Source: an uncultured Eubacteriales bacterium (GTDB lineage Bacteria; Bacillota; Clostridia; Oscillospirales; Butyricicoccaceae). From it: a DNA stretch of 61,725 nucleotides. The notes beneath the pieces were generated by a model, which saw only the letters and a list, made by a program, of their open reading frames with translations, was not told the origin of the DNA and did not search any database. Positions 6,402 through 55,328 of the stretch are shown here, in pieces (within the stretch, counting starts at the first letter, position 1; each line of letters begins with the position of its first letter). Both the position numbers and the translations under genes were made by a program. Where the stretch lies: assembly GCA_934636325.1 (NCBI GenBank), contig CAKUAK010000033.1:1-61725 (forward strand), written 5' to 3'.

Positions 6402-6977
6402 TCATTTATTTTGCCGCCTCAGCAGCGGCTGTGAAATCAGAAGATACCCGAAAAGTATGATGGTCCAAAGTCCACCGCCCCTCTGCGCAGACCATGCGGC
6501 CGCGGCCGTCATCGCCATGCATGCTGCCAACGAAACCGCGCCCGATACTGTCCAGCCGATATACGGACCGAAAAAATACTCCAGTGCAAGATACAGCGAC
6601 CGGCCGCCGTCCAGCGGGTATATCGGAAGAAGGTTAAAAAGACACAGGGCAAGATTCATACCGACAAAGGCCCGCGATCCCTCTCCCGCCCCCGACAAAA
6701 GGAAGCACACCGCAAGATTGGCCGCCGGGCCGGCCAGCGCGGCGGCCAGATCGGCCCAATAGGGCGACGCCCCGCCCCTATATCTTATATCGGCGCCCCC
6801 CGGTATGAGTGTGACGGCCTCTATTTTCAGCCCCAGCAGCATCATGCAGGCGGCATGTCCCGCCTCGTGAACAAAGGCCGCCGCAAGGACCGGCCACAGT
6901 CCCCTCCCGCCCAGCACGATCACGACCGCCGCAAAGGGCACAAACATCGGATGGCACTTTATTTTTATATCCATCAC
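6402..6977 (-). CDS. spoIVFB: site-2 (M50) intramembrane metalloprotease, SpoIVFB-like, short form without CBS domain
   Basis: HEAGHA zinc motif in a TM helix plus NLLPIYPLDGG second motif. Only 191 aa. Lies immediately downstream of an M23/LytM-domain membrane protein, as in the spoIVFA-spoIVFB arrangement. Confidence 0.75.
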   Translation of the reverse strand: MMDIKIKCHPMFVPFAAVVIVLGGRGLWPVLAAAFVHEAGHAACMMLLGLKIEAVTLIPGGADIRYRGGASPYWADLAAALAGPAANLAVCFLLSGAGEGSRAFVGMNLALCLFNLLPIYPLDGGRSLYLALEYFFGPYIGWTVSGAVSLAACMAMTAAAAWSAQRGGGLWTIILFGYLLISQPLLRRQNK

Positions 6978-6982
6978 CCCGA

Positions 6983-7924
6983 TCAGAAGGTAAAATATCC
7001 GTTTGGGTCCTGAACATAGCCGTTGTGCCTGACCTCAAAGTGAAGATGCGGCCCGGTGGAATAGCCCGTCGACCCGACAAGGCCGATCTGCTGGCCGGCC
7101 TTGACGCTCTGGCCCTTCTTAACGCTTATTTTGCTCAAATGCGCGTAATTGGTGAGAAATCCGCCCTCATGAGATATCTTGACATAATTGCCGTTAATAT
7201 TGCCGAAGCCCGTTTCGGCCACCGTCCCGGCAGCGGCGGCCGTCACCTTTGTTCCCGAAGAGGCCGCCATATCGACACCGTAATGAAAGGTCGTGTTGCC
7301 GCTTATCGGATGTACCCGATAGCCGTAAGGCGATGTTATGCGATAGCTTTTAAGGGGCAGCCGAAAGGTATATCCGGGCTGATAGATATTATCGTCGACT
7401 ATATCGGGGCTTGGGATGCGGAAGGCCTCGTTGGGTGTACCGTCATATTCTTCCTCTTCGTCAAAGCCGATATCGTCGTATGTCTCTCCCCTCGGGGGCG
7501 GCGATTCGCTTATACCAAAGGCAAGGCCGGAGATATCCCCGGCCCTGCTGTCCCCCGCCATATTCCCGAAAAGGACGCCGGAGGTCGGCTGTTCTCCGGC
7601 GTCGGCATCAACATCGGCATTATCCTCAAGCCCGAGGATCAGGCGGCCGAAAACCAGCATGGCATTATCATCGCCGTCATCTTTACCGGAAAAGACACGC
7701 CCGAGGGTCTCGGCCGCCTTTTCGAGATCGGTATTCCCGGCGATCACCTCGGAAAGCCTTTCCCGTGCCCTGTACAGCGGACCGGAGGACGCATAGCGCA
7801 TGGCCAGCGACAGGGCGATCACAATGATGAATATAAGCGGCTTGACCGACCCCGCCGCCGCGATCTTTCGTGAACTCCGCTTCTTTACGGAATACCGGCT
7901 TCGGCTTTTACGGCGAGCAGCCAT
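6983..7924 (-). CDS. membrane-anchored M23 (LytM) family peptidase, SpoIVFA/SpoIIQ-like
   Basis: Basic N-terminus and a single TM (PLIFIIVIALSLAM), an acidic linker, and a C-terminal LytM domain with intact HYGVD (HxxxD) and GPHLHFEV (HxH) motifs. Confidence 0.85.
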   Translation of the reverse strand: MAARRKSRSRYSVKKRSSRKIAAAGSVKPLIFIIVIALSLAMRYASSGPLYRARERLSEVIAGNTDLEKAAETLGRVFSGKDDGDDNAMLVFGRLILGLEDNADVDADAGEQPTSGVLFGNMAGDSRAGDISGLAFGISESPPPRGETYDDIGFDEEEEYDGTPNEAFRIPSPDIVDDNIYQPGYTFRLPLKSYRITSPYGYRVHPISGNTTFHYGVDMAASSGTKVTAAAAGTVAETGFGNINGNYVKISHEGGFLTNYAHLSKISVKKGQSVKAGQQIGLVGSTGYSTGPHLHFEVRHNGYVQDPNGYFTF

Positions 7925-7942: not shown

Positions 7943-9418
7943 TCACAGGATTATACAGATAAGCCCGCCGCTGCCCTCGTTGATTATGCGCTGAAGGGTC
8001 TCCTGGAGCTTGCTTCTGGCGTCCTCGGGCATTTTATAGAGCTTATTGTTGAGGCCTTCGTTGACAAGCTCGCTCAAGGATTTGCCGAAGATATTGCTGT
8101 CCCATATCTTTTCGGGGGAATCCTCGAACTCGGCCAGCAGATATTTGACAAGATCCTCCGACTGCTTTTCGGAGCCGACCACCGGCGATACCTCGGTCTC
8201 TATATCGGCACGGATAAGATGTATCGAGGGCGCGCTGGCCTTCAGCTTGACGCCGTATCGCCCGCCCTGCATGACGATCTGCGGTTTTTCAAGGTGCATC
8301 TCATCGAGTGTAGGCATGACTATGCCGTAACCGGTCTGGCGCACCTGCTCCAGCGCGCCTTCGACCCGCATGTATTTTTCGCGGACCGAGGCCATCTCAC
8401 ACAAAAGGGGCAGAAGGTCGGCGTCGCTTCTGACCTTTACGCCCGACTGGCTCGAAAGGATATCATAATATATATCCCGCGGCAGCCCGACGGTGACGTT
8501 GACCACCCCATCGCCCAGATCTATGCCGTCTATCATGACGGAGGATATACGCCCGCAGCCGTTGAGACCCATGATCCGCCCGCGCACATCCTTCATTTTC
8601 GCCGCGCCCGCGCAGGCCGAGAGCATATCGGAGTAAAGACCTATCTTTATTTCGTTGTCATCGGGCAGAACGCTTACCCAATCAGGAAGTGTAAAGTCAA
8701 ACTCCTTTGCAGGGAATTCATACAGAACGGTCGTAAGTATCTCTGTTATATCCTGTTTTTCAAGCTCCATGCAGTTGACAGGAAGGCAGGATACGCCGTA
8801 TTTTTTTGAAAGACTGTCGGCAAGCTCGACCGTCTGGGGCGCCTTGGGCGACGAGGAATTGAGCAGCATGCAGAAGGGCTTATTTATCTCCTTGAGCTCC
8901 GACACGATGCGTTCTTCGGCGGGGACATAATCGGCGCGGGCGATCTCTCCTATCGTTCCGTCGGTCGTCACCACCAGCCCGATGGTCGAATGCTCTGTTA
9001 TCACCTTTCGGGTCCCGATCTCCGCCGCCTCGGTAAGGGGTATCTCGTGGTCGAACCAGGGGGTCATGACCATGCGCGGGGCGTCGTCCTCGAACTGCCC
9101 CAGCGCACCGTTGACCATATATCCGACGCAGTCTATCATGCGGACGCTGAGGCTTACCGACTCGTCGATAGTTATCTTTACGGCTTCCTCGGGGACGAAC
9201 TTGGGCTCGGCCGTCATTATGGTCCTACCCGACCCGCTCTGGGGCAGCTCGTCTCTGGCCCGCTCCTTCTGGTAAACATTCTCTATATTGGGCAGAACCA
9301 GCTGCTCCATAAAGCTCTTGATAAATGTCGATTTGCCGGTGCGCACAGGGCCGACGATGCCGAGGTATATCTGTTTGCCGGTGCGCTCGGCTATCGACTG
9401 ATAAATGCTTCTTTCCAT
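7943..9418 (-). CDS. spoIVA: stage IV sporulation protein A (spore coat morphogenetic ATPase)
   Basis: N-terminus MERSIYQSIAERTGKQIYLGIVGPVRTGKSTFIK (Walker A). 491 aa, with full-length resemblance to SpoIVA. Confidence 0.95.
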   Translation of the reverse strand: MERSIYQSIAERTGKQIYLGIVGPVRTGKSTFIKSFMEQLVLPNIENVYQKERARDELPQSGSGRTIMTAEPKFVPEEAVKITIDESVSLSVRMIDCVGYMVNGALGQFEDDAPRMVMTPWFDHEIPLTEAAEIGTRKVITEHSTIGLVVTTDGTIGEIARADYVPAEERIVSELKEINKPFCMLLNSSSPKAPQTVELADSLSKKYGVSCLPVNCMELEKQDITEILTTVLYEFPAKEFDFTLPDWVSVLPDDNEIKIGLYSDMLSACAGAAKMKDVRGRIMGLNGCGRISSVMIDGIDLGDGVVNVTVGLPRDIYYDILSSQSGVKVRSDADLLPLLCEMASVREKYMRVEGALEQVRQTGYGIVMPTLDEMHLEKPQIVMQGGRYGVKLKASAPSIHLIRADIETEVSPVVGSEKQSEDLVKYLLAEFEDSPEKIWDSNIFGKSLSELVNEGLNNKLYKMPEDARSKLQETLQRIINEGSGGLICIIL

Positions 9419-9436: not shown

Positions 9437-10963
9437 CTAACGCTGTGCAAAAGGTATGAGTATCAGCCTTCCGGCGGCGATCTCTTCGTCCTCGGCCATG
9501 CGGTTGGCCGCGGCGATGACCCGCGGATATGTGCCATAGGCCTTGGCGATATTCCATATGCTGTCGCTTTTGTCGGCCGATCTTACTATGACCGAGGCCC
9601 GGCTCCCGCCCGTTCTGGCCTTTTCTCTGTCGACCGTCATATCCGATATAACACAGGACGCGCGACGGGAGCTTTCATAACGGCTTATGCGGGCTTCAAA
9701 GCTTACCGATGCCTCTTCGCCGTTCAGCTCCCACTCGGGATGCAGGCATTCGCCGGCACACCATCCGCCCGATCCGATCGGCTCTTCGGCTTCGCCTCCG
9801 GCATATATGCGGCGGGTACAGACAGCCGGAGTGCCGTCGGCCTGCTGGCCGATGAAGGTAAAATAAAACCCTATGCCGGCCTCCCGCTCTTTTTCCTTTA
9901 TGACGGCATCGGCAGGGGTCACAAAAATGTCGATCACCTTTTCGATCCCGGCGTCGAGGGTCACGGTCTCTTTGACGGGCAGCGTCAGCGCCGCCGATCT
10001 GCACCCGCCCTCTAACAGCCATGTTTCGGCGCAGGAGCTCTCCCACTTTATGCTGTAAGCATCGCGCACGGCCGATATCTTCATCCGGCGTCTCACGCGG
10101 CATTGAGCCTCGGCCGTAAAGGTGAACCGCATAACATCGCCGCCGTCGGAGGACGATGTTATCTCGATCTCATCCCTAAGGGGGCGATATTCAAGCTCGG
10201 CCTCGTCATCGGGCGTTATTCCGTCGATCTCTATCATCTGTGAAAACGGGATCGTATATCTGTTGCGGCATGACAGGCTTCCGTCCCCGCAGACCGCGGC
10301 TATCCTGCTTTCGACATGGCCTCTTACCATGACCTTGTTAGCCATGATCTTCGTATCCTCGATCTCCCAGAGGGTATCGGTCCTTACGATAACGCAGCTG
10401 CTGTCGAGGCGTTCGCCGTCAAGACGTATCTCATCTCCGACGACGATCCGTTTTGAAACGACGCCGGTCAAAAGGCTGACGTCGACGGTATCCCCGCGAC
10501 TGCACACCCCGTCGTCATCGCCGGATATCAGCCTTTCGGCATATTCCTGAACGCATTTATGGTATACCCGCCGAAAGACCTCGACCTGTATTTTGACCGA
10601 TACCTTTCTCGGGTTTATCATCGACGCCGCGGCCGACAGCACCTTTACCGTCACCTCTGCCCTGTCCTCTTCGCCCATGTTTCCCAGCTCTCTGGAAAAA
10701 GAAAAGGGCACGGCGGCGTTTATCCTGTGGGGCGTATGTCCCTCTGTCGAAATATAGCTTATGCAGCAGTTGACGCTGCCGGCCGCTTTAACGAGCCCCT
10801 CCTGGCAGCTCTTTTCCTGAACATAAAGCAGAGGGCCGGCGGCTATTATCTGCAATATATCGGGCTCTGTATCGGGAACGATGACGACGAGGCTCTCGTC
10901 AAGTATATCGACGTCGGCCGACGCCATATCATAATGACCGAGCCGATTCTTTACGATCTCCAT
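9437..10963 (-). CDS. DUF3794/SPOCS-repeat protein with C-terminal LysM domain (SipL/SpoVID-like coat morphogenetic protein)
   Basis: 508 aa. The C-terminal LysM-like segment is SDSIWNIAKAYGTYPRVIAAANRMAEDEEIAAGRLILIP. The stop is only 18 nt upstream of spoIVA. The size and architecture match the clostridial SpoIVA partner SipL as I recall it. Confidence 0.7.
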   Translation of the reverse strand: MEIVKNRLGHYDMASADVDILDESLVVIVPDTEPDILQIIAAGPLLYVQEKSCQEGLVKAAGSVNCCISYISTEGHTPHRINAAVPFSFSRELGNMGEEDRAEVTVKVLSAAASMINPRKVSVKIQVEVFRRVYHKCVQEYAERLISGDDDGVCSRGDTVDVSLLTGVVSKRIVVGDEIRLDGERLDSSCVIVRTDTLWEIEDTKIMANKVMVRGHVESRIAAVCGDGSLSCRNRYTIPFSQMIEIDGITPDDEAELEYRPLRDEIEITSSSDGGDVMRFTFTAEAQCRVRRRMKISAVRDAYSIKWESSCAETWLLEGGCRSAALTLPVKETVTLDAGIEKVIDIFVTPADAVIKEKEREAGIGFYFTFIGQQADGTPAVCTRRIYAGGEAEEPIGSGGWCAGECLHPEWELNGEEASVSFEARISRYESSRRASCVISDMTVDREKARTGGSRASVIVRSADKSDSIWNIAKAYGTYPRVIAAANRMAEDEEIAAGRLILIPFAQR

Positions 10964-38450: not shown

Positions 38451-38933
38451 TTACGCCTTATAGATAAGAGCCACCGCATGGGCCGACATGCCGTCGCCGC
38501 TGCCGGTGAAGCCAAGCTTTTCTTCGGTCTTGGCTTTAATGCCGACGCGGTCCTCCGTTATCCCCGCCGCCCCGGCTATAATGGCCTTCATGGCCGGGAT
38601 ATGGGGCATCATCTTCGGCCGCTGAGCCACTATGATCGAATCTATATTGCCTATGCTCCAGCCCTCGTCCCGCAAAAGCTGCGCCGTCCTTCGCAGCAGC
38701 TCTATGCTGTCGGCCCCCTTGTATCGCGGGTCGCTGTCGGGAAAATGGGTGCCGATATCGGCCATACCCGCGGCGCCGAAAAGAGCGTCTATTATCGCAT
38801 GGGCCAGCACGTCGGCGTCGCTGTGGCCATCGAGGCCCTTTTCAAAAGCAATATCGACGCCGCCTATTATCAGCCTGCGTCCCTCGGCCAGCCGATGGAC
38901 GTCATATCCGTTTCCGATCCTGATATCCTTCAT
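38451..38933 (-). CDS. ispF: 2-C-methyl-D-erythritol 2,4-cyclodiphosphate synthase
   Basis: IRIGNGYDVHRL and GHSDADVLAHA motifs. Confidence 0.95.
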   Translation of the reverse strand: MKDIRIGNGYDVHRLAEGRRLIIGGVDIAFEKGLDGHSDADVLAHAIIDALFGAAGMADIGTHFPDSDPRYKGADSIELLRRTAQLLRDEGWSIGNIDSIIVAQRPKMMPHIPAMKAIIAGAAGITEDRVGIKAKTEEKLGFTGSGDGMSAHAVALIYKA

Positions 38934-39646
38934 ATTTCCTCCTCAAAAAGAGCGGCGGCAATGGCAAGATCCTCTGCCGTGGTTATTTTTATATTGCGGA
39001 ACGAGCCATCGACCAGCGCGGGCTTGGCCCCCAGAGCCTCCAGCGCGGCGCAATCGTCGGTCGCCGTTATCCCCTTGTCGATACAGTTTTTAAGCGCGGC
39101 GGCCAGAAGCTGCCTGTCCGAACCCTGCGGCGTCTGCATGGCGCGCATACGGCTGCGGTCGGCAAGGGCGATCGCCCCGGTGTCAGGGTCTATCACCCTT
39201 ATGGTATCATTGACCGGGACGGCGGCGGCGGCACAGCCGGTCTCGATCGTCTTTTCGACGACGCGGTCGATGACCTCTGCCGTAACGAGCGGCCGCGCGC
39301 CGTCGTGGACAAGGACATAAGCGCAGTCGGGCCCGCAGGCGCACACGCCCTTGTATACGCTTTCGGCGCGGGATGCCCCGCCCGACACCACCTGCGTCAC
39401 CTTGGATATTTCAAAGGTCCGGGCAAGATCGGCATAATCGAGCAGCAGGTCTTCGCGCGCCACGATGACGATCTCGTCTATATTCCCGTTTGCCTCAAAA
39501 GCCCTTAATGTATGAGCGAGCACCGGCATGCCCGCCACCTCTGCCAGCAGCTTGTTGCCGCCCTTCATCCTGGTCGACGATCCGCCTGCCGCGATAACGG
39601 CGGCGACATGCGGACGCTCCGGCTTCTTTTTAAACAGACCGAACAT
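38930..39646 (-). CDS. ispD: 2-C-methyl-D-erythritol 4-phosphate cytidylyltransferase
   Basis: VIAAGGSSTRM P-loop-like motif. 4-nt overlap with ispF. Confidence 0.93.
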   Translation of the reverse strand: MFGLFKKKPERPHVAAVIAAGGSSTRMKGGNKLLAEVAGMPVLAHTLRAFEANGNIDEIVIVAREDLLLDYADLARTFEISKVTQVVSGGASRAESVYKGVCACGPDCAYVLVHDGARPLVTAEVIDRVVEKTIETGCAAAAVPVNDTIRVIDPDTGAIALADRSRMRAMQTPQGSDRQLLAAALKNCIDKGITATDDCAALEALGAKPALVDGSFRNIKITTAEDLAIAAALFEEEI

Positions 39647-39746: not shown

Positions 39747-39758
39747 GCCGGACAGCAC

Positions 39759-39786
39759 CAGAGGGGACGCCTCAGCGCCCCCTCTG
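39759..39786. other. GC-rich hairpin 3' of spo0A (possible U-tract-less terminator)
   Basis: CAGAGGGGACGC / GCGCCCCCTCTG 12-bp stem (1 mismatch) with loop CTCA. Confidence 0.4.
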
Positions 39787-39864: not shown

Positions 39865-40644
39865 TTATCCGACGTCGCACATATCAAGACGGATCTTGTC
39901 GGCGATCATCGAAATAAACTCCCCGTTTGTCGGCTTTCCCTTTGTGTTGGACACCGTGTATCCAAAGAAATGATTGAGGACCTCCACGTCCCCGCGATCC
40001 CACGCGACCTCTATTGCGTGGCGGATAGCCCTTTCTACCCGCGACGAGGTCGTCTGGTGGTTTTTGGCGACGGCGGGATACAGCACCTTTGTTATCGAGT
40101 TTATCGTCTCGATATTATGAACAGCCATGATTATCGACTCTCTAAGATACTGATAACCCTTTATATGTGCCGGAACGCCTATCTCGTGAAATATCTGTGT
40201 CACCTTGACCTCCAGCTCGTGCCGGGCCGCGGCATCGTCCAGCTTCTCCAGCCGCGCCGTTTCCGGGGTGCGCCGGTATTTGAGCACCCTTTCGGCCAGG
40301 GTCGCATAGTCGATCGGCTCGAGCATAAGGAACGACACATCAAGGTCGATGGCCTCGGCGCTCATGCCCTGGCTGACAAAAGAGCTGGTGACAATGGTGA
40401 ACACCTTTTCGCCGCCGGGGATCTGCCTGATGGCCTTTATCGCCGCAAGACCGTCTATCCCCGGCAGCATGGCCGACGTAATGACGACCTGTGGGTGGTG
40501 ACGCCTGAAGGCCTCGATAAGCTCGGCTCCGGTCGACGGCATTTCGACTATCTCGATCCGCCCGTCGGAGCACAGCATATCGCGCATGACCTGACGCCTC
40601 TCGCTTCTGTCTACTGCTGCAACAACTTTAATGATTTCCTCCAT
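39865..40644 (-). CDS. spo0A: Spo0A-family sporulation master regulator with atypical (degenerate) receiver domain
   Basis: C-terminal domain carries [39 protein letters not shown] and KPTNGEFI signatures. ATG at 40644 (MEEIIKVV...). The receiver region has V11, S57 and E109 where Asp, Asp and Lys are expected. Confidence 0.9.
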
Positions 40645-40708
40645 CTTTGGCACCTCTTCCGATTCTTCTTTGGCTGTCCGCAAATTAAAATTACCATATT
40701 TTGGGATA

Positions 40709-40739
40709 AAATTCAATATCTTTTTCGAAATTTCCCTAT
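40709..40739 (-). promoter_or_regulatory. sigma-H-like promoter upstream of spo0A
   Basis: Minus strand: atAGGGAAA (40731-40739), 13 nt, attGAATtt (40709-40717). Compare the sigma-H consensus RnAGGAwww / RnnGAATww. Confidence 0.45.
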
Positions 40740-40745
40740 AATCTT

Positions 40746-40772
40746 TTCGACATTTTCCGACACGATCCGACG
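40746..40772 (-). promoter_or_regulatory. three phased 0A-box-like repeats
   Basis: Minus strand: CGTCGGA (40766-40772), TGTCGGA (40756-40762), TGTCGAA (40746-40752), at exact 10-nt spacing. The proximal box equals the TGNCGAA 0A-box consensus and sits 6 nt upstream of the -35-like element. Confidence 0.5.
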
Positions 40773-40909: not shown

Positions 40910-42145
40910 TCAGGCCCTGACCTTTTTGAGCTGGGCAAATCTGGGCAGACCGTTTTCCCAGCAATAGGGGTTTTCTCCCTTTATAAGGGGCAGAGCATAG
41001 GCGAAGAACTCGTCCTTTATGCCCGTGCCATCCTCGGTGATCCATTCCAGGGGGAACTTTTTTTCTGTATTGGCGACGACCGAAAGATCGAGCAGCTCTA
41101 CCTTCGGGGCATATTCTTCGCCCTCGCCACGGCTGATTGCGACCATGCGATCGGTGACGCCGCTGACGGCGGCCTTGACGGCCTCCTTCCCCATAAGTAC
41201 GGCCTCATTCACATCGGTCTCGGATGCGCAATGGGCGGCACAGCGCTGCATGAGCGAGAACTCAATGGCACGCACCTTGGCGCCGGTGGCGGCCTTGACG
41301 GCCGAAGCCAGGTACGCGGCCGAGCCGCCCATCTGCTTGTGGCCGAAGGCGTCAGCCGCGCCGCCCTTGCTGGCATATTCAGCGATAAAGACGCCGTCCT
41401 TATCCTTTATGCCCTCAGAGATAACGGCGATGCAGTTGCCCTTTTCCTTATAGCATGCCGCGGCGCGCTCGACGAAAGAGTCGACGTCAAAGGGCAGCTC
41501 GGGCAGATAGATAAGATCGGGGGCACAGCCGCTCTTGCCCGCCAGCGCGGCGGCGGCCGTCAGCCAGCCGGCATTCCTGCCCATTGCCTCGATTATCGTT
41601 ATGGCGCCGGTGTCATATACCGTGGCGTCACGATAGATCTCAGCGCAGGAGGCGGCGATATACTTTGCCGCCGAGCCATAGCCGGGGCAATGGTCTGTGC
41701 CGAAAAGGTCGTTGTCGATCGTCTTGGGTATGCCTATAACGCGGCACTCGTAGCCCTGGCTGAGCAGGTATTTTGAGACCTTGTTGCAGGTGTCCATCGA
41801 ATCGTTGCCGCCGTTATAGAAGAAATAACGGACATCGTATTTTTTGAATATTTCAAGTATGCGCTTATAGTCGGTGTCATCGACCGAAGAATCCTTGAGC
41901 TTATACCGGCAGGAGCCAAGGGCCGACGAGGGCGTGCTTTTGAGCAGCTCGAGCTCGCGGGGATCTTCCTTTGAGATATCGTAAAGGACATCGTCCAGAA
42001 CGCCCTTTATGCCATGGGCCGCGCCGAGAACGCGGGTGATGTTGGGATCCTTGAGCGCCTGGCTGAACACGCCGTAAGCGCTGGAGTTTATAACGGAAGT
42101 CGGCCCGCCCGACTGGCCGAAGATACATGCACCTTTAAGAGACAT
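40910..42145 (-). CDS. pfp: 6-phosphofructokinase, long clostridial type, probably pyrophosphate-dependent
   Basis: GQSGGPTSVINSS N-terminus. GGNDS (Asp at the E. coli Gly104 position), PKTIDND (Lys at the Gly124 position) and MGRNAGW. Confidence 0.85.
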   Translation of the reverse strand: MSLKGACIFGQSGGPTSVINSSAYGVFSQALKDPNITRVLGAAHGIKGVLDDVLYDISKEDPRELELLKSTPSSALGSCRYKLKDSSVDDTDYKRILEIFKKYDVRYFFYNGGNDSMDTCNKVSKYLLSQGYECRVIGIPKTIDNDLFGTDHCPGYGSAAKYIAASCAEIYRDATVYDTGAITIIEAMGRNAGWLTAAAALAGKSGCAPDLIYLPELPFDVDSFVERAAACYKEKGNCIAVISEGIKDKDGVFIAEYASKGGAADAFGHKQMGGSAAYLASAVKAATGAKVRAIEFSLMQRCAAHCASETDVNEAVLMGKEAVKAAVSGVTDRMVAISRGEGEEYAPKVELLDLSVVANTEKKFPLEWITEDGTGIKDEFFAYALPLIKGENPYCWENGLPRFAQLKKVRA

Positions 42146-42241
42146 CGAAAAAACCTCCAGTATGATTATATGGAAAGTTTATCACACACCCATGAAAAAA
42201 ACAACCGAACATTGCCCGGCCGACGCCTGTCAACTATTTGA

Positions 42242-42270
42242 TTGAATATTTGCGCAAATGCTGTTAGAAT
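42242..42270 (+). promoter_or_regulatory. sigma-A type promoter for fba with embedded palindrome
   Basis: TTGAAT (42242-42247), 17 nt, TGtTAGAAT (TAGAAT at 42265-42270). The spacer begins with the perfect palindrome ATTTGCGCAAAT (42248-42259). Confidence 0.55.
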
Positions 42271-42305
42271 ACAAATATACGTTATGTAAGGAGGGTGCAT
42301 GAACC

Positions 42306-43241
42306 ATGCCGCTTGTAACAACAAAAGAAATGTTCGAAAACGCCTATAAGGGCGGATACGCCATCGGCGCTTTCAATGTAAACAATATGGAGATAATCCA
42401 GGGCATCACAGAGGCTGCCATGGAAGAGCGCTCGCCCGTCATCCTTCAGGTGTCGGCCGGCGCTCGCAAATATGCAAGACACACCTATCTCGTAAAGCTG
42501 GTGGAAGCCGCCATCATCGAGACCGGCGTTCCCATCGCCCTGCATCTCGATCACGGCGAAAACTTTGATATATGCAAGGCCTGTGTCGACGGCGGATTTT
42601 CGTCGGTCATGATCGACGGTTCGAAATACAGCTTCGAGGACAACATTGCTCTCACCAAGCAGGTCGTCGATTATGCCCATTCCAAGGGTGTCGTCGTCGA
42701 GGGCGAGCTGGGCAGGCTCTCGGGCATTGAGGACGCCGTCAATGTTTCGGATGAGGACGCGCAGTTCACCGATCCCGCACAGGTCGAAGAGTTCGTCGCC
42801 CGCACCGGTGTCGACTCGCTGGCCATCGCCATCGGCACCAGTCACGGCGCATACAAGTTCAAGCCCGGCCAGAAGCCCAGGCTGCGCTTCGACATCCTTG
42901 AAAAGATCCAGAACAGGCTCGAGGGCTTCCCCATCGTCCTCCACGGCGCATCCTCCGTTCCCCAGGAGCAGGTAGCCATCATCAACAAGTTCGGCGGTGC
43001 CATGCCCGATGCCATCGGCATCCCCGAGGATATGCTGCGCCAGGCCGCCAAGATGGCAGTCTGCAAGATCAACATCGACTCTGACCTTCGAATCTGCATG
43101 ACGGCCGCTGTCCGCCAGCATCTGGCCGAACATCCCGATCATTTCGATCCCAGGCAGTATCTGACCGACGGCAGGACGGCCATCAAGAATATCGTCGCAC
43201 ACAAGATGCGCGATGTTCTCGGCTCTTCCGGCACACTTTAA
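42306..43241 (+). CDS. fba: class II fructose-1,6-bisphosphate aldolase
   Basis: MPLVTTKEMFENAYKGGYAIGAFNVNN, HLDHG, GELG and HGASS motifs. AAGGAGG upstream. Confidence 0.95.
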   Translation: MPLVTTKEMFENAYKGGYAIGAFNVNNMEIIQGITEAAMEERSPVILQVSAGARKYARHTYLVKLVEAAIIETGVPIALHLDHGENFDICKACVDGGFSSVMIDGSKYSFEDNIALTKQVVDYAHSKGVVVEGELGRLSGIEDAVNVSDEDAQFTDPAQVEEFVARTGVDSLAIAIGTSHGAYKFKPGQKPRLRFDILEKIQNRLEGFPIVLHGASSVPQEQVAIINKFGGAMPDAIGIPEDMLRQAAKMAVCKINIDSDLRICMTAAVRQHLAEHPDHFDPRQYLTDGRTAIKNIVAHKMRDVLGSSGTL

Positions 43242-43258
43242 TTTCAGATGATCTTCAG

Positions 43259-43296
43259 GACCCGGCTGTTTCAAAACGGCCGGGTCTTATTTTTTC
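43259..43296 (+). terminator. rho-independent terminator after fba
   Basis: GACCCGGC / GCCGGGTC stem followed by TTATTTTTTC. Confidence 0.7.
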
Positions 43297-43387
43297 AAAA
43301 AAACCTGGCATTTCTTTGAATGGCATGTTTTTTAAAGTCGTTTTTCATCTCCGCAGGGCAAAATAGCTATCGAAGGGAGCGTGAAAA

Positions 43388-44437
43388 ATGATCTGTCAGA
43401 AAATCAGAAAAAAATTGGCAAAAACAGCGGCATTTCTTATGGCCGCGGCATTATGTTTCCCGATTTTTACCGAAAATATCAATGCCGCGGGCAAAAAGCT
43501 CATCCCTCTCGGCCGCACGACCGGCATCAAACTCTTCTCCGGCGGCGCGATGGTGGTCGGCTTTGCCTCCTCCGAGGCGACCGGAGGCCCATCGCCTGCC
43601 CAGCGGGGCGGCCTGTGTATCGGCGACGTCATAATGGCGGTCGACGGCATATCGGTCGAAAGCAACGAGGAGCTTTCCTCCGCCCTATCCTCTCTCAAAT
43701 GCGACAGTACCATGCTGACCGTCCGCCGCGGCGGCGATACCCTCGACGTCACGGTCGGCGGTCTGCTTCCCGATGAGGGCGGCGGATACCGTCTCGGGGC
43801 ATGGGTGCGCGACAGCATGGCCGGCATAGGCACGATAACCTTTGTCGACCCGACCACCGGCGAGTTCGGCGCGCTGGGTCACGGCATATGCGACGTCGAT
43901 ACCGGCAGGCTCATGCCCTTTGACAACGGCAGCACCATGACCTCGACCGTGACCGGCGCCGTCCGCGGCCAGAGGGGCAAGCCGGGGCAGCTAACCGGCG
44001 AGTTCGATCTGCGGCAGGACAGCGGAGTTCTACGCGAAAACACCGGCGGCGGCATATTCGGCGTCCTGACCGACAAAAGCCTATACAGCGGCCTTAAAGC
44101 CGTCGAGACGGCAGGGATCGACGATGTCCGATGCGGCAAGGTCGAGATACTCTCGAATGTAAACGGCACAGAAGTCGAGCGCTATTCGGCAAAGATCACA
44201 CGCATAATGAAAAACGAGGAAAGCGGCCGTGACTTCATGCTTGAGATAACAGACGACCGGCTTATCGGCCGGACCGGAGGCATCGTCCAGGGCATGAGCG
44301 GAAGCCCGATCCTTCAGGACGGCCGCCTGATCGGCGCCGTCACCCATGTTCTCATCAATGATCCCGAGCAGGGCTATGGTATATCCATCGACAATATGAT
44401 GGGTTATTCAAGCACCCTTACCCTCAGCGCAGCATAA
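43388..44437 (+). CDS. spoIVB: SpoIVB peptidase (S55 signalling serine protease with PDZ domain)
   Basis: N-terminal signal/TM, PDZ segment (GDVIMAVDGISV), GTITFVDPTTGEFGALGH (His) and GIVQGMSGSPI (Ser). Confidence 0.92.
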   Translation: MICQKIRKKLAKTAAFLMAAALCFPIFTENINAAGKKLIPLGRTTGIKLFSGGAMVVGFASSEATGGPSPAQRGGLCIGDVIMAVDGISVESNEELSSALSSLKCDSTMLTVRRGGDTLDVTVGGLLPDEGGGYRLGAWVRDSMAGIGTITFVDPTTGEFGALGHGICDVDTGRLMPFDNGSTMTSTVTGAVRGQRGKPGQLTGEFDLRQDSGVLRENTGGGIFGVLTDKSLYSGLKAVETAGIDDVRCGKVEILSNVNGTEVERYSAKITRIMKNEESGRDFMLEITDDRLIGRTGGIVQGMSGSPILQDGRLIGAVTHVLINDPEQGYGISIDNMMGYSSTLTLSAA

Positions 44438-51559: not shown

Positions 51560-52603
51560 TCATCCCGCAATCAATCTTGCAATATCATTATAGGTTACAA
51601 AAGCAAACAGAATAAGTACCAGGCCCAGCCCGGCATAGGATATATAATTTTCGATCTTCGGATCGAGAGGCTTTCTTCTTATAAGCTCTATTATCATAAG
51701 CAGCAGCTTGCCGCCGTCGAGCCCCGGCACGGGAAGCATATTGACAAACGACAGGTTGACGGCAATATATGCGACAAAATACCACATCTCGGTCATCGAC
51801 TGCCCGGCGCGCTCGCTTATCTCGTTGGCTATGCCCACCGTACCCATAAGGTCAGAGGTCTTTGCCCGGCCGGTTATCAGCATGCCTAGGCTCTTGTATG
51901 CCGACTGGAAAAAGCTGAGGGCATTATCGAAGGCATAGCTCAGCTTGCCAATGCCCTTTATCTCTTCATAACCGAAATTGAGGCCGAAGCGCAGCCTGCC
52001 GGTGCCGTCGTAATCCTTCGGTTCGAGTTCGAGATCGCTCAGCACGATCTTTTCTCTGCCGCGGCGCACCGTTATATCGTAGGGCTGACCTGTGCCGAGC
52101 TGAAGGGCGGTCACGACGTCATTATAGACAAAAATGTGGAAGCCGTTGATATCTACGATCTCGTCACCCTCCTGAAGGGTACCTTCCAGCGGGAAGCCTT
52201 CGGCAAAGCCGGTCAGAACGGGCTGTGCCACAGAGCTGGCCGGAATGAGGATGAACATGATTATGACTATGCCGCAAAGGAAGTTCATCAGCGATCCGGC
52301 TATTATGACGGCAAATCGTCCCAGCCAGGGCGCCTCCTGAAAGCTGCCCTCCGACGTCCATTCGGCGGGGTCGATATCCTCGGGCGGGTCCTCTCCGGCA
52401 TCCTTGAGCATGACGGCCCCGCCCACCGGCAGGAGCCTTATTGCATAGAGGGTCTCGCCCAGCTTCTTTTTGATAAGCGCCGGGCCGAAGCCGATATTGA
52501 ATTGATAGACAGTTATACCGGCTAACTTGGCGGCCGTAAAATGTCCCAGCTCATGCACAAAGATTATGAGCCCGAAAACCAATATCGCATAAATAACTGT
52601 CAT
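51560..52603 (-). CDS. rseP: RIP metalloprotease RseP/RasP (M50 with PDZ)
   Basis: HELGHF in TM1, a central PDZ, and C-terminal NMLPVPGLDGG. Confidence 0.93.
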   Translation of the reverse strand: MTVIYAILVFGLIIFVHELGHFTAAKLAGITVYQFNIGFGPALIKKKLGETLYAIRLLPVGGAVMLKDAGEDPPEDIDPAEWTSEGSFQEAPWLGRFAVIIAGSLMNFLCGIVIIMFILIPASSVAQPVLTGFAEGFPLEGTLQEGDEIVDINGFHIFVYNDVVTALQLGTGQPYDITVRRGREKIVLSDLELEPKDYDGTGRLRFGLNFGYEEIKGIGKLSYAFDNALSFFQSAYKSLGMLITGRAKTSDLMGTVGIANEISERAGQSMTEMWYFVAYIAVNLSFVNMLPVPGLDGGKLLLMIIELIRRKPLDPKIENYISYAGLGLVLILFAFVTYNDIARLIAG

Positions 52604-52625: not shown

Positions 52626-53765
52626 TCAAAGCGCGGCCGATACGGCCCTTCTGGCCTCGGCATCGCTTTCAAACACTTCATCAACAGACGGTTTTGTTGT
52701 AAAGCCTACACGCTTTACAGCATTCTCCACAAGCCTGTAAATATCCAGGAAGCCTATGCGGCCATCAAGAAATGCCGCGACGGCGGCCTCGTTTGCTCCG
52801 TTAATGACCGCGCCCATATTTCCCCCACGCTTTGAGGCCTCTTCACAGAGGGCCAGCGCCGGGAAATTATGCCTGTCGGGCTGAAAAAAGGACAGAGAGC
52901 CGAGGCTGAAGATATCAAGGGTCTCAAAGGGGTTGACCGTCCTCTCGGGATATTCGACGGCATACTGGATCGGCAGACGCATGTCGGCATTACCCATCTG
53001 GGCGATGACCGAACCGTCGACAAATTTGACGGCCGAATGAAGTATGCTCTCGCGGTGAACGACGACGTCGATCCTATCGGCGGGAACGCCGAACAGCCAC
53101 GATGCCTCCATGACCTCGAAGCCCTTATTCATCATGGTCGCCGAGTCGATGGTTATCTTTTTGCCCATTTTCCATGTGGGGTGGCGCAGGGCATCGTCCA
53201 CCGTGACGCCGGCCAGCATCTTTTCATCCCAGCCGAAAAACGGCCCGCCGGAGGCCGTGAGGATAAGGCGGTCGACCTCGCTCGATCTGCCCGCGCGCAG
53301 GCACTGGAAGATGGCGCTGTGCTCGGAATCGACAGGCAGCACCTCGGCCTTATTGGATCTGGCCGCATCCATAACGATATGTCCGGCGCAGACAAGGGAC
53401 TCTTTGTTGGCCAGCGCCAGCCTTTTTCCCCCATTAAGCGCGGCAAGGCTGGGGCGCAGACCGGCAATGCCGGTCGCCGCATTGACGACGGTATCGGCAT
53501 CCTCATATGAAGCGGCATGAAGGACAGCCTCCTGCCCGCCGCCCACGATACAGCCTGTATCGGCGACGCGGGAGCGGAGCTCCGCGGCGGCATTTTCATC
53601 CATAAGGGCGTAATACTTCGGCTTCAGCACGCGGATCTGCTCTTCGGCAGCCTTTGCATTGCTTCCGCAGGCCATGGCCGTGACCCCATACCCCTTGGCA
53701 TAGGCAAGCTGCACCGTCTGGGTTCCCACAGAACCGGTACTACCAATTATAGAAAGTTTTTTCAT
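52626..53765 (-). CDS. dxr: 1-deoxy-D-xylulose 5-phosphate reductoisomerase
   Basis: GSTGSVG NADPH motif, and LANKESLV and DSEHSAIFQC motifs. Confidence 0.95.
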   Translation of the reverse strand: MKKLSIIGSTGSVGTQTVQLAYAKGYGVTAMACGSNAKAAEEQIRVLKPKYYALMDENAAAELRSRVADTGCIVGGGQEAVLHAASYEDADTVVNAATGIAGLRPSLAALNGGKRLALANKESLVCAGHIVMDAARSNKAEVLPVDSEHSAIFQCLRAGRSSEVDRLILTASGGPFFGWDEKMLAGVTVDDALRHPTWKMGKKITIDSATMMNKGFEVMEASWLFGVPADRIDVVVHRESILHSAVKFVDGSVIAQMGNADMRLPIQYAVEYPERTVNPFETLDIFSLGSLSFFQPDRHNFPALALCEEASKRGGNMGAVINGANEAAVAAFLDGRIGFLDIYRLVENAVKRVGFTTKPSVDEVFESDAEARRAVSAAL

Positions 53766-53768
53766 AAA

Positions 53769-54590
53769 TTATACTCCGATTATATTGACGGCTATAAGAT
53801 AAAGCTCAAAGAGCGGCGCCGTGAAGAGGATACTGTCGAATCTGTCGAGAACTCCGCCGTGGCCCGGGAATATCCTTCCGAAATCCTTGATGCCGACATT
53901 GCGTTTGATGAGCGACATCGAAAGGTCACCCAGCTGACCGGCGGCCGCGCCGAAAATACCCGCGATGAAGAGCGGAAGCACGCTGAAGCCGGTGTTAAAG
54001 AAGTGGTCCATGCAGAGACCGAAAATGACTATTCCGGCCGCGCCGCCCAAAAGGCCGCCTATCGAACCCTCTATGGTCTTTTTGGGGCTGACATGGGGGG
54101 CCAGCTTGTGCTTTCCGCAAAGCCTGCCGACGGCATATGCCAGCATATCGCTTACCCACGCGGCGATGCAGGGCATGAGTATATAATACTTTCCCAGCTC
54201 GCCCGCCCCCTCATATATCCTCAAAAGGGACGAAAGAAAATACGGAAGGACAAAGGCGCCCATAAAGGACATGGCCAGCTTATCGAAGGTGACCCGCTTA
54301 TAGTCAAAGATGCCCATTACAAAGGCCACGAACCCGAAGGCGAAAAGCACCAGTGTAAGAGAACCCTCTTTGGGCGCATAGGCCGTCAGATAGGGCACAA
54401 AGAAGGCCGCCGCACAGGATACATAGAGCAGCGGATGACCCTTGAGCTCCCCTGTCTCGCCGAGAAGCTCATATGCGGCGAGGGCCGACAGCAGACACAA
54501 TACCGCGGCAAGTACCCACGAGGGCAGAAAATAAAGAATAACTATTACTGCGGCTATGCCGACAACCGATGTTACAAGGCGAATGCCCAT
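53769..54590 (-). CDS. cdsA: phosphatidate cytidylyltransferase
   Basis: Polytopic protein with the C-terminal signature SLIKRNVGIKDFGRIFPGHGGVLDRFDS. Confidence 0.93.
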   Translation of the reverse strand: MGIRLVTSVVGIAAVIVILYFLPSWVLAAVLCLLSALAAYELLGETGELKGHPLLYVSCAAAFFVPYLTAYAPKEGSLTLVLFAFGFVAFVMGIFDYKRVTFDKLAMSFMGAFVLPYFLSSLLRIYEGAGELGKYYILMPCIAAWVSDMLAYAVGRLCGKHKLAPHVSPKKTIEGSIGGLLGGAAGIVIFGLCMDHFFNTGFSVLPLFIAGIFGAAAGQLGDLSMSLIKRNVGIKDFGRIFPGHGGVLDRFDSILFTAPLFELYLIAVNIIGV

Positions 54591-54593
54591 AGA

Positions 54594-55328
54594 TCATACT
54601 CCCCCAAAACGTCTTTTCCTGTGCATATATTCTTTCATTGCGGCGGCCAGATCCTCTTCGGTCATATCGGGCCACAGCTTATCGGTGAAATAAAACTCGC
54701 TGTAAGCACACTGCCACAAGAGGAAATTGGATATGCGCTTTTCTCTTCCCGGCCTGATTATAAGATCGGGGTCGGGCGTACCGGCCGAATACATATTGTC
54801 GGACAAAACCTGCTCGGTGATATCCTCGGGCCCGAGCTCGCCCGCTGCCGCCCTTCTGGCTATCTCCGCCGCCGCGCGGACTATCTCCTGACGTCCGCCG
54901 TAATTCAGGCATACATTGACGCAGAGGCCTGTCTGTTCGCGGGAGATGGCATTGGTCCTGTCGATAAGGTCAAGCAGCCTGCGGGGCAGGACCGATACAT
55001 CGCCCCAGAACCGAAGCCTTATGTTCTTCTCGGCCATGCTTTCGATGGCCTCGTTGAGATACTTTTCAAAAAGGAACATTATGGCCGAGACCTCTTCGGC
55101 CGGGCGTTTCCAGTTTTCGGTCGAAAAGGCATAGACCGTAAAATATTTTACTCCGACATCGGCCATGTATTCGGCCGCCCTGCGGAAGGTCTCACTTCCC
55201 GCCTTATGCCCGGCGGACCTGGGCAGTCCCCGGGCCTGAGCCCATCTGCCGTTGCCGTCCATTATGACGGCGACATGGGTCGGGACATGCAGGAGCTCTT
55301 CGGGCGTAAGATAAAGATGATCTGACAT
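54594..55328 (-). CDS. uppS: isoprenyl transferase (undecaprenyl diphosphate synthase)
   Basis: HVAVIMDGNGRWA and RPGREKRISNFLLWQ motifs. ATG at 55328 follows AGGAGA. The track ORF adds 20 codons. Confidence 0.93.
   Translation of the reverse strand: MSDHLYLTPEELLHVPTHVAVIMDGNGRWAQARGLPRSAGHKAGSETFRRAAEYMADVGVKYFTVYAFSTENWKRPAEEVSAIMFLFEKYLNEAIESMAEKNIRLRFWGDVSVLPRRLLDLIDRTNAISREQTGLCVNVCLNYGGRQEIVRAAAEIARRAAAGELGPEDITEQVLSDNMYSAGTPDPDLIIRPGREKRISNFLLWQCAYSEFYFTDKLWPDMTEEDLAAAMKEYMHRKRRFGGV

Follow-up and report, generated by a model that had tools for sequence, protein, structure and literature searches.

A Spo0A orthologue of uncultured Clostridia whose receiver domain lacks the canonical phosphorylation site

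Spo0A and the aspartate-less receivers

All the Spo0A proteins studied so far are controlled by phosphorylation, and every described pathway for the initiation of sporulation converges on one conserved aspartate of the receiver domain, as stated in a mutant study of Clostridioides difficile Spo0A and in reviews. In C. difficile, the substitutions D10A, D11A, D56A and K108A each lead to a severe sporulation defect and lower dimerisation, and D56A abolishes phosphorylation. Here we analysed a spo0A gene in a 61,725-nucleotide contig of an uncultured Eubacteriales bacterium of the Butyricicoccaceae (GenBank assembly GCA_934636325.1, contig CAKUAK010000033.1; the whole contig is called the window below), and it is confirmed that its product is a genuine Spo0A with a receiver devoid of the canonical phosphorylation site. 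The canonical Spo0A proteins of Bacillus subtilis, Geobacillus stearothermophilus and C. difficile share with it the two-domain architecture, the receiver fold, the spoIVB neighbourhood and the upstream 0A boxes. The protein in the window differs from them in that it has lost D10, D56, K108 and the aromatic switch, and has the new invariant residues GG77-78, F82, E100 and E109 and an RRTPE hinge.

Receivers without the phospho-accepting aspartate are already known as a class, the aspartate-less receivers (ALRs); what is new here is an ALR-type Spo0A orthologue that is clade-wide and under selection. A census of ALRs (Maule et al. 2015, PMC4395418) counts seven of them among 391 Response_reg~Spo0A_C proteins in a supplementary table, while Spo0A appears in its main text only as laboratory mutants. 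In searches of the openly accessible full-text literature, this supplementary count was the sole trace of a natural aspartate-less Spo0A, and no description of such a protein was found. In the same census, the first acidic residue of the pocket is kept in 65% of the ALRs, the position of the pocket lysine is basic in 70%, the second acidic residue is usually lost, and Ser is a frequent substitute for the aspartate (15% of the ALRs). The pattern in the clade described below is the reverse of this norm, as the first acidic residue and the lysine are always lost and the second acidic residue is mostly kept. Like our protein, the ALR regulators ChxR, HP1043, RitR and FrzS combine a receiver fold lacking the phospho-accepting aspartate with a DNA-binding output. 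Precedents for action without Asp phosphorylation also exist among the orphan atypical developmental regulators of Streptomyces, namely WhiI and the BldM-WhiI pairing, and Spo0A-Sad67 of B. subtilis is constitutively active after deletion in the receiver, which means that the effector domain is active once the inhibition by the receiver is removed. However, these are members of other families or laboratory mutants, whereas the protein described here is natural, selected and equipped with a full-length receiver.

The receiver pocket and its distribution in the clade

The gene and the parts of its product considered first are as follows.

39865..40644, minus strand: spo0A coding sequence, 259 amino acids and a stop codon (TIGR02875, Pfam Spo0A_C and Response_reg, homologues with an identical start Met)
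40279..40644, minus strand: aspartate-less pseudo-receiver, residues 1-122 (AlphaFold2, Foldseek, substitution rates)
40609..40614, minus strand: Val-Asp codons 11-12 in place of the acidic pair D10-D11 (phmmer, MAFFT)
40474..40476, minus strand: codon 57, TCG, Ser in the column of the phospho-acceptor Asp (nucleotides, phmmer, MAFFT)
40318..40320, minus strand: codon 109, Glu in the column of the pocket Lys, K108 of B. subtilis (MAFFT, clade comparison)
39880..40209, minus strand: Spo0A effector domain for DNA binding and transcription activation, residues 146-255 (structure matches, identity)

The open reading frame (ORF) is uninterrupted, and its ATG start codon has GAGGTG upstream at 40651-40656. 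The product matches the NCBIfam equivalog TIGR02875 (spore_0_A) with 241.4 bits over residues 5-255 (model positions 3-259 of 262; cut-off 200 bits), Pfam Spo0A_C (PF08769) with 148.2 bits over residues 148-251, where the whole model is covered (1-104 of 104; cut-off 25), and Pfam Response_reg (PF00072) with 39.6 bits over residues 12-120 (cut-off 30.2). In the effector domain the identity is 66% to the structure 1fc3, 60–64% to 1lq1 and 75–95% inside the clade. AlphaFold2, run with a 102-sequence alignment, gave a model with a mean predicted local distance difference test (pLDDT) score of 87.5, in which the receiver is predicted to be a regular (beta/alpha)5 fold with strands and helices in the canonical order and pLDDT mostly above 90. 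By Foldseek, the modelled receiver superposes on the Spo0A receivers 5wq0 and 1qmp with template modelling (TM) scores of 0.89–0.92 and root mean square deviations of 1.2–1.7 Å, with TM of about 0.9 to Spo0A and CheY receivers, which is a receiver fold; the modelled effector domain reaches TM 0.88–0.93 to 1fc3 and 1lq1, as expected of a Spo0A effector.

The receiver fold is thus retained without the residues that normally accept the phosphoryl group. The phmmer alignment with the 5wq0 receiver is gap-free over residues 3-123; in it V11-D12 faces the D-D pair, S57 faces the acceptor Asp (vvitSam against vlllDii) and E109 faces the Lys (lmlEp against fmlKp). When the protein is aligned by MAFFT with B. 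subtilis Spo0A and 120 homologues, Val11, Asp12, Ser57, Ser87 and Glu109 correspond to D10, D11, D56, T86 and K108, respectively. Of the catalytic quintet D-D-D-T/S-K, which reads V-D-S-S-E here, two of five residues are kept, so the domain does not qualify as a phospho-accepting receiver. At the level of the sequence, canonical activation through Asp56 is also unsupported, with Ser57 in the acceptor column, D10 replaced by V and K108 by E.

An earlier reading of the letters alone (the sequence-only reading) had called the gene a Spo0A orthologue with Val11, Ser57 and Glu109 in the pocket, had read codon 57 as TCG on the minus strand, and had held an alignment slip or a frameshift to be unlikely. 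Each of these points was borne out: TIGR02875 and Spo0A_C establish the identity and all three C-terminal motifs quoted at that time are present; phmmer and MAFFT place the three substitutions in identical columns, with Ser57 and no Asp in the acceptor column; and TCG is read at 40476-40474. That the whole pattern is an artefact of sequencing, of a frameshift or of a misaligned acceptor column has a negligible probability. A Logan assembly from an independent run (L009, SRR25571542) shows 97.3% nucleotide identity over 1,963 nt; its spo0A differs at five nucleotides, among them two amino-acid replacements and two synonymous changes, and has identical pocket residues, which excludes a local sequencing or assembly error, also at 40474-40476. 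The frame is continuous, and an alignment slip is ruled out because phmmer, MAFFT and the structural superposition agree, with no gaps near the site. In the 76 relatives with D56 and K108, Asp and Lys are present because the group was defined by them, and the adjacent family-wide columns P51, D64 and G65 are invariant alongside, so the substitutions are not alignment noise. Moreover, the pattern is common to 20 relatives.

These relatives come from a homologue search over 5.8 billion proteins, in which the 20 closest clusters have 59–99% identity and the score then falls from 334 to 288 bits. The sequence-only reading had raised the question of whether the change is clade-wide, and it is. Glu occupies the K108 column in all 21 clade members (the query and the 20 clusters), although of all 122 aligned sequences 100 have Lys there; Asp is found in the D10 column of no clade member; and the acceptor Asp is missing in 19 of the 20 closest clusters, where S, T, N, Q, R or A takes its place. 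At the second acidic position (12), 19 of the 21 members have D or E, and the other two have C or a gap. In a neighbour-joining tree built after removal of the five diagnostic columns, the query and the 20 clusters fall together in one clade, which lies among the branches of canonical relatives, and no canonical protein groups with it.

Loss of the acceptor is not confined to this clade. Among 112 full-length representatives nearest to the query (clustered at 50%), about 30 lack the acceptor Asp, a few of these rows being poorly aligned there. Outside the clade, 19 relatives have Glu56 with the Lys kept, and others have S, N or A at the acceptor. The Glu-acceptor Spo0A proteins of uncultured Clostridia (P0022, P0026-P0028, P0031-P0033 and others) belong to the same family, have likewise lost the phosphorylatable Asp, and lie in an overlapping neighbourhood, such as pfk-fba-spoIVB-spo0A in the locus L015. 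They differ from the clade in keeping D10/D11 (or E/D) and K108, and they stand outside the aspartate-less clade, among Asp-retaining relatives. Their spread over several branches shows that these are independent losses, so that Glu56 marks a second, separate route away from phosphorylation and may act as a built-in phosphomimic. In the Glu56 set as a whole (the P0022-P0050 range, P0067, P0071, P0078 and P0116), Lys108 is kept and the acidic pair mostly so. Separately, many relatives that keep Asp56 and Lys108 lack the normally metal-binding D11, where Cys, Gly, Ser or Thr stands; the quintet reads DCDSK in P0059, P0066, P0086, P0089, P0090, P0093, P0095, P0097 and P0107, and DGDSK, DSDSK and DTDSK types also occur. 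The Spo0A pocket seems to be unusually plastic among these Clostridia.

The remodelled receiver is not a decaying one. The ratio of nonsynonymous to synonymous substitution rates (dN/dS) was determined on two close clade pairs with an unsaturated synonymous rate (dS) of 0.7–1.0, distant pairs being saturated. It is 0.106 and 0.091 for the receiver, 0–0.02 for the hinge and linker, and 0–0.003 for the effector domain, which answers in the affirmative whether the receiver is under purifying selection, as the sequence-only reading had wondered. In addition, the receiver identity at a given effector identity is no lower in the clade (0.47–0.55) than in canonical relatives (0.43–0.60), and these two measures together rule out decay. 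The domain is therefore a receiver fold that has lost the phosphorylatable Asp and is kept by selection, the two marks of an ALR. Several residues conserved in canonical relatives are lost in the clade, i.e. the first acidic residue, F16 in helix alpha1, P81, F89, the aromatic switch F106 and L116, and new ones are invariant in it, i.e. G77-G78, F82, E100, E109 and the hinge Y-R-R-T126-P-E128-x-V. Since the receiver is maintained by selection with new invariants, it should still be functional. The surface of helix alpha1 is the contact to the phosphodonor in Spo0F and Spo0A (C. difficile Spo0A mutant study). In three clade members (P0016, P0017 and P0020) Arg57 lies beside the invariant Glu109, which suggests a possible polar contact between the two in place of the Asp-Lys pair.

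The spo0A locus and its promoter

The genes around spo0A in the window are polC, mnmA, spoIVB, fba, pfp, spo0A, ispD, the Se/S carrier and cysteine desulfurase genes, cdaA and ybbR. The neighbours of spo0A and the elements flanking it are as follows.

43388..44437, plus strand: spoIVB (TIGR02860, 305.5 bits), with 69% identity to its counterpart immediately before spo0A in the locus L005
42306-43241, plus strand: fba
40910-42145: pfp
40743..40763, minus strand: tandem 0A boxes with a 10-bp period upstream of spo0A, TGTCGGA at 40756-40762 and a perfect TGTCGAA at 40746-40752
40688..40716, minus strand: promoter-like block TTGAAT - 17 nt - TAATTT preceded by TG (extended -10), kept in L001-L005, putative in function
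about 39755-39785, minus strand: GC-rich stem-loop after the spo0A stop codon
39719-39746, minus strand: near-consensus ispD promoter TTGAAA-16-TATAAT, 11 of 12 positions
38930..39646, minus strand: ispD, first gene of the downstream block (ispD, Se/S carrier, cysteine desulfurase, cdaA, ybbR)

In the window, spoIVB lies 2.7 kb from spo0A with an inverted pfp-fba block in between. The closest locus, L005 (72% identity, with S57 and E109), keeps the classical spoIVB-spo0A adjacency in the order pfp (minus strand), fba, spoIVB, spo0A, ispD, ispF, cysteine desulfurase, cdaA and ybbR. The sole difference in gene order is that the pfp-fba-spoIVB block (40910-44437) is inverted in the window, L004 and L016 relative to L005:2190-5714. 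The order ispD...cdaA-ybbR is found 3' of spo0A in the clade loci L011, L012, L016 and L017 and in the canonical L014, and the same block stands downstream of spo0A of the canonical P0076 (DDDSK); P0025 and P0032 have pfk-fba-spoIVB upstream of spo0A. With spoIVB nearby and ispD-cdaA downstream, the gene occupies the ancestral spo0A locus, and it is therefore the orthologous spo0A and not a stray copy.

This bears on the explanation that the gene is a specialised or regulatory second copy, with a canonical, phosphorylatable spo0A elsewhere in the genome running sporulation. Such copies do occur, as in a survey of 118 Spo0A-positive genomes 10 have two spo0A paralogues and one has three; here, however, the gene is at the ancestral locus with spoIVB and the ispD-cdaA block, and no canonical protein clusters with the clade, so we regard this explanation as improbable. 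The apparent second match in the related assembly RGIG2201 (L003 and L006) turned out to be one gene split over two contig ends, which overlap by about 160 nt with one mismatch. The protein P0007 was ruled out as a canonical clade member, since it has 376 amino acids, a duplicated effector domain and 48% identity. It is encoded on an ENA contig of 1,662 nt, where the summed score of the two tandem effector copies ranks it among the closer homologues, and it is probably an assembly artefact.

Upstream of spo0A, the TGTCG...GTCG columns of the tandem 0A boxes are invariant when six clade loci are aligned with one canonical relative (L014). The retention of these boxes implies that 0A boxes are probably still recognised by the protein, most likely in dimeric form, and that it would control its own expression. 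The promoter-like block follows about 30 bp downstream of the boxes and is conserved in five other clade loci; a consensus scanner did not call it, and its -10 element matches three of six positions. A promoter of the sigma-H type was considered and rejected, because the window contains only a partial match, whose -35 element lacks conservation among the relatives; the conserved block would fit a sigma-A extended -10 promoter better. On the other side of the gene, the stem-loop after the stop codon and the separate strong ispD promoter suggest that spo0A is monocistronic and transcribed alone. As a further observation, the perfect TGTCGAA occurs 13 times across the window against 6.4 expected (one of 100 shuffles reaches 13), and most copies are intragenic, two of them inside sipL.

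Control of Spo0A activity and sporulation in the clade

Since the pocket has lost its Lys, its acceptor Asp and its first acidic residue, and the aromatic switch and the helix-alpha1 residue are gone as well, no His-Asp switching is to be expected. We assume, with moderate confidence, that this Spo0A works through an aspartate-less pseudo-receiver independently of His-Asp phosphotransfer, with its activity set by an autoregulated protein level and possibly by a partner or a modification. According to this model, the receiver of a spo0A orthologue of uncultured, probably Oscillospiraceae-related Clostridia would have evolved into a pseudo-receiver whose role is most likely dimerisation, control of the effector domain or the sensing of another input. 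With an essentially unchanged effector domain, the protein should still bind 0A boxes as a dimer, and as its own promoter keeps the tandem boxes, its activity is most likely set by its amount. Spo0A activity would then depend mainly on concentration through the autoregulatory loop, with a possible contribution from a partner or a modification that targets the remodelled receiver and hinge.

Several points weigh against this model. In model organisms, the receiver inhibits the effector domain as long as it is not phosphorylated, and a single mutation in the pocket is enough to cause loss of function. A working aspartate-less Spo0A would hence need compensating changes, to which the present data only point. 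One clade member, P0009, retains Asp at 56 while lacking D10, D11 and K108, which suggests that D56 was lost only after K108E had arisen and D10 had gone. The inter-domain geometry of the AlphaFold2 model is unreliable (predicted TM score 0.51). Every clade cluster that was looked up is a metagenome assembly, with no cultured organism.

The sporulation and peptidase genes of the window, which bear on the remaining explanations, are listed here together with the hinge.

40255..40278, minus strand: hinge motif Y123-R-R-T126-P-E128-x-V130 at the receiver-linker junction, with T126 and E128 invariant in the clade, absent from canonical relatives
7943-9418: SpoIVA, 708 bits against a cut-off of 460
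9437-10963: SipL
6402-7924, minus strand: short M50 peptidase ORF (191 amino acids, two matched stretches) beside an M23 peptidase, immediately downstream of spoIVA
51560-52603: second M50 peptidase, full-length

The protein could still be switched by phosphorylation at another site, either at Thr126 of the RRTPE hinge by a PrkC-like Hanks-type kinase or at the acidic residue 12. Thr126 is the best candidate, because T126 and E128 are invariant, clade-specific and located in a flexible hinge; in the AlphaFold2 model the Y-R-R-T-P-E-x-V motif lies in a non-helical stretch of low confidence, and residues 128-133 are disordered. The motif is a candidate regulatory site. Furthermore, the window carries genes for PrkC and, next to it, a PP2C phosphatase, and position 12 is acidic in most of the clade, as given above. 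However, PrkC/Stp pairs are near-universal in Firmicutes, so that their presence in the window says nothing specific, and two members have no acidic residue at position 12 but C or a gap. A pocket lacking both D56 and K108 has no catalytic geometry for the formation of an acyl-phosphate. The sequence-only reading had speculated that Ser57 itself might be the target of the PrkC/Stp pair; this has to be given up, since the clade shows S, T, N, Q, R, A and in one member D at position 57, which leaves no conserved phospho-Ser and argues against any conserved chemistry there. Altogether we consider switching at another site unlikely.

It is about equally unlikely that the lineage is losing or has lost sporulation and keeps Spo0A for other regulation, the loss of the site being a release from the sporulation decision. 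Spo0A is retained in many asporogenous Firmicutes (Galperin et al.), the clade has no cultured or spore-verified member, and loss of the acceptor is recurrent among related uncultured gut lineages. Opposed to this, the sporulation genes in the window are full-length and at the equivalog level (SpoIVA, SpoIVB and SipL), purifying selection acts on the receiver, the effector domain has hardly changed and the tandem 0A boxes are kept. The pass of SpoIVB is marginal, at 305.5 bits against the NCBIfam cut-off of 305.25, with model positions 84-396 matched and the N-terminal part of the model missing. The sporulation and kinase context named by the sequence-only reading stands for spoIVA, spoIVB, SipL, two M50 peptidases, PrkC and a PP2C phosphatase, and does not stand for spoVM, which a pattern search of the window did not find. 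The M23 and M50 neighbours downstream of spoIVA could be a SpoIVFA/SpoIVFB-like pair, and in L011 and L012 a gene for YunB adjoins spo0A. Elsewhere in the window, a 602-amino-acid ORF (53517-55325, plus strand) has no Pfam match at E ≤ 1e-4.

Beyond the pseudo-receiver model itself, we tentatively put forward, as a possibility short of an even chance, that this clade of gut or rumen Clostridia still sporulates and enters sporulation without any His-Asp phosphotransfer to Spo0A. Control might then be level-based, or a new input might act on the pseudo-receiver (GG77-78, F82, E100, E109) and the RRT126PE hinge; such an input could be a protein partner or phosphorylation on Ser/Thr.

The variant questions the universality of Spo0A phosphorylation. 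If the proposal is true, then, together with the independent lineages in which Asp is replaced by Glu, Ser, Asn or Gly, phosphorylation of Spo0A would not be universal among spore formers, and if the clade sporulates, the endospore master switch would be operable without two-component chemistry. It would also provide a natural experiment on the re-purposing of receiver domains, and would revise the inference of sporulation from gut metagenomes, where the presence of spo0A is taken to mean the canonical pathway.

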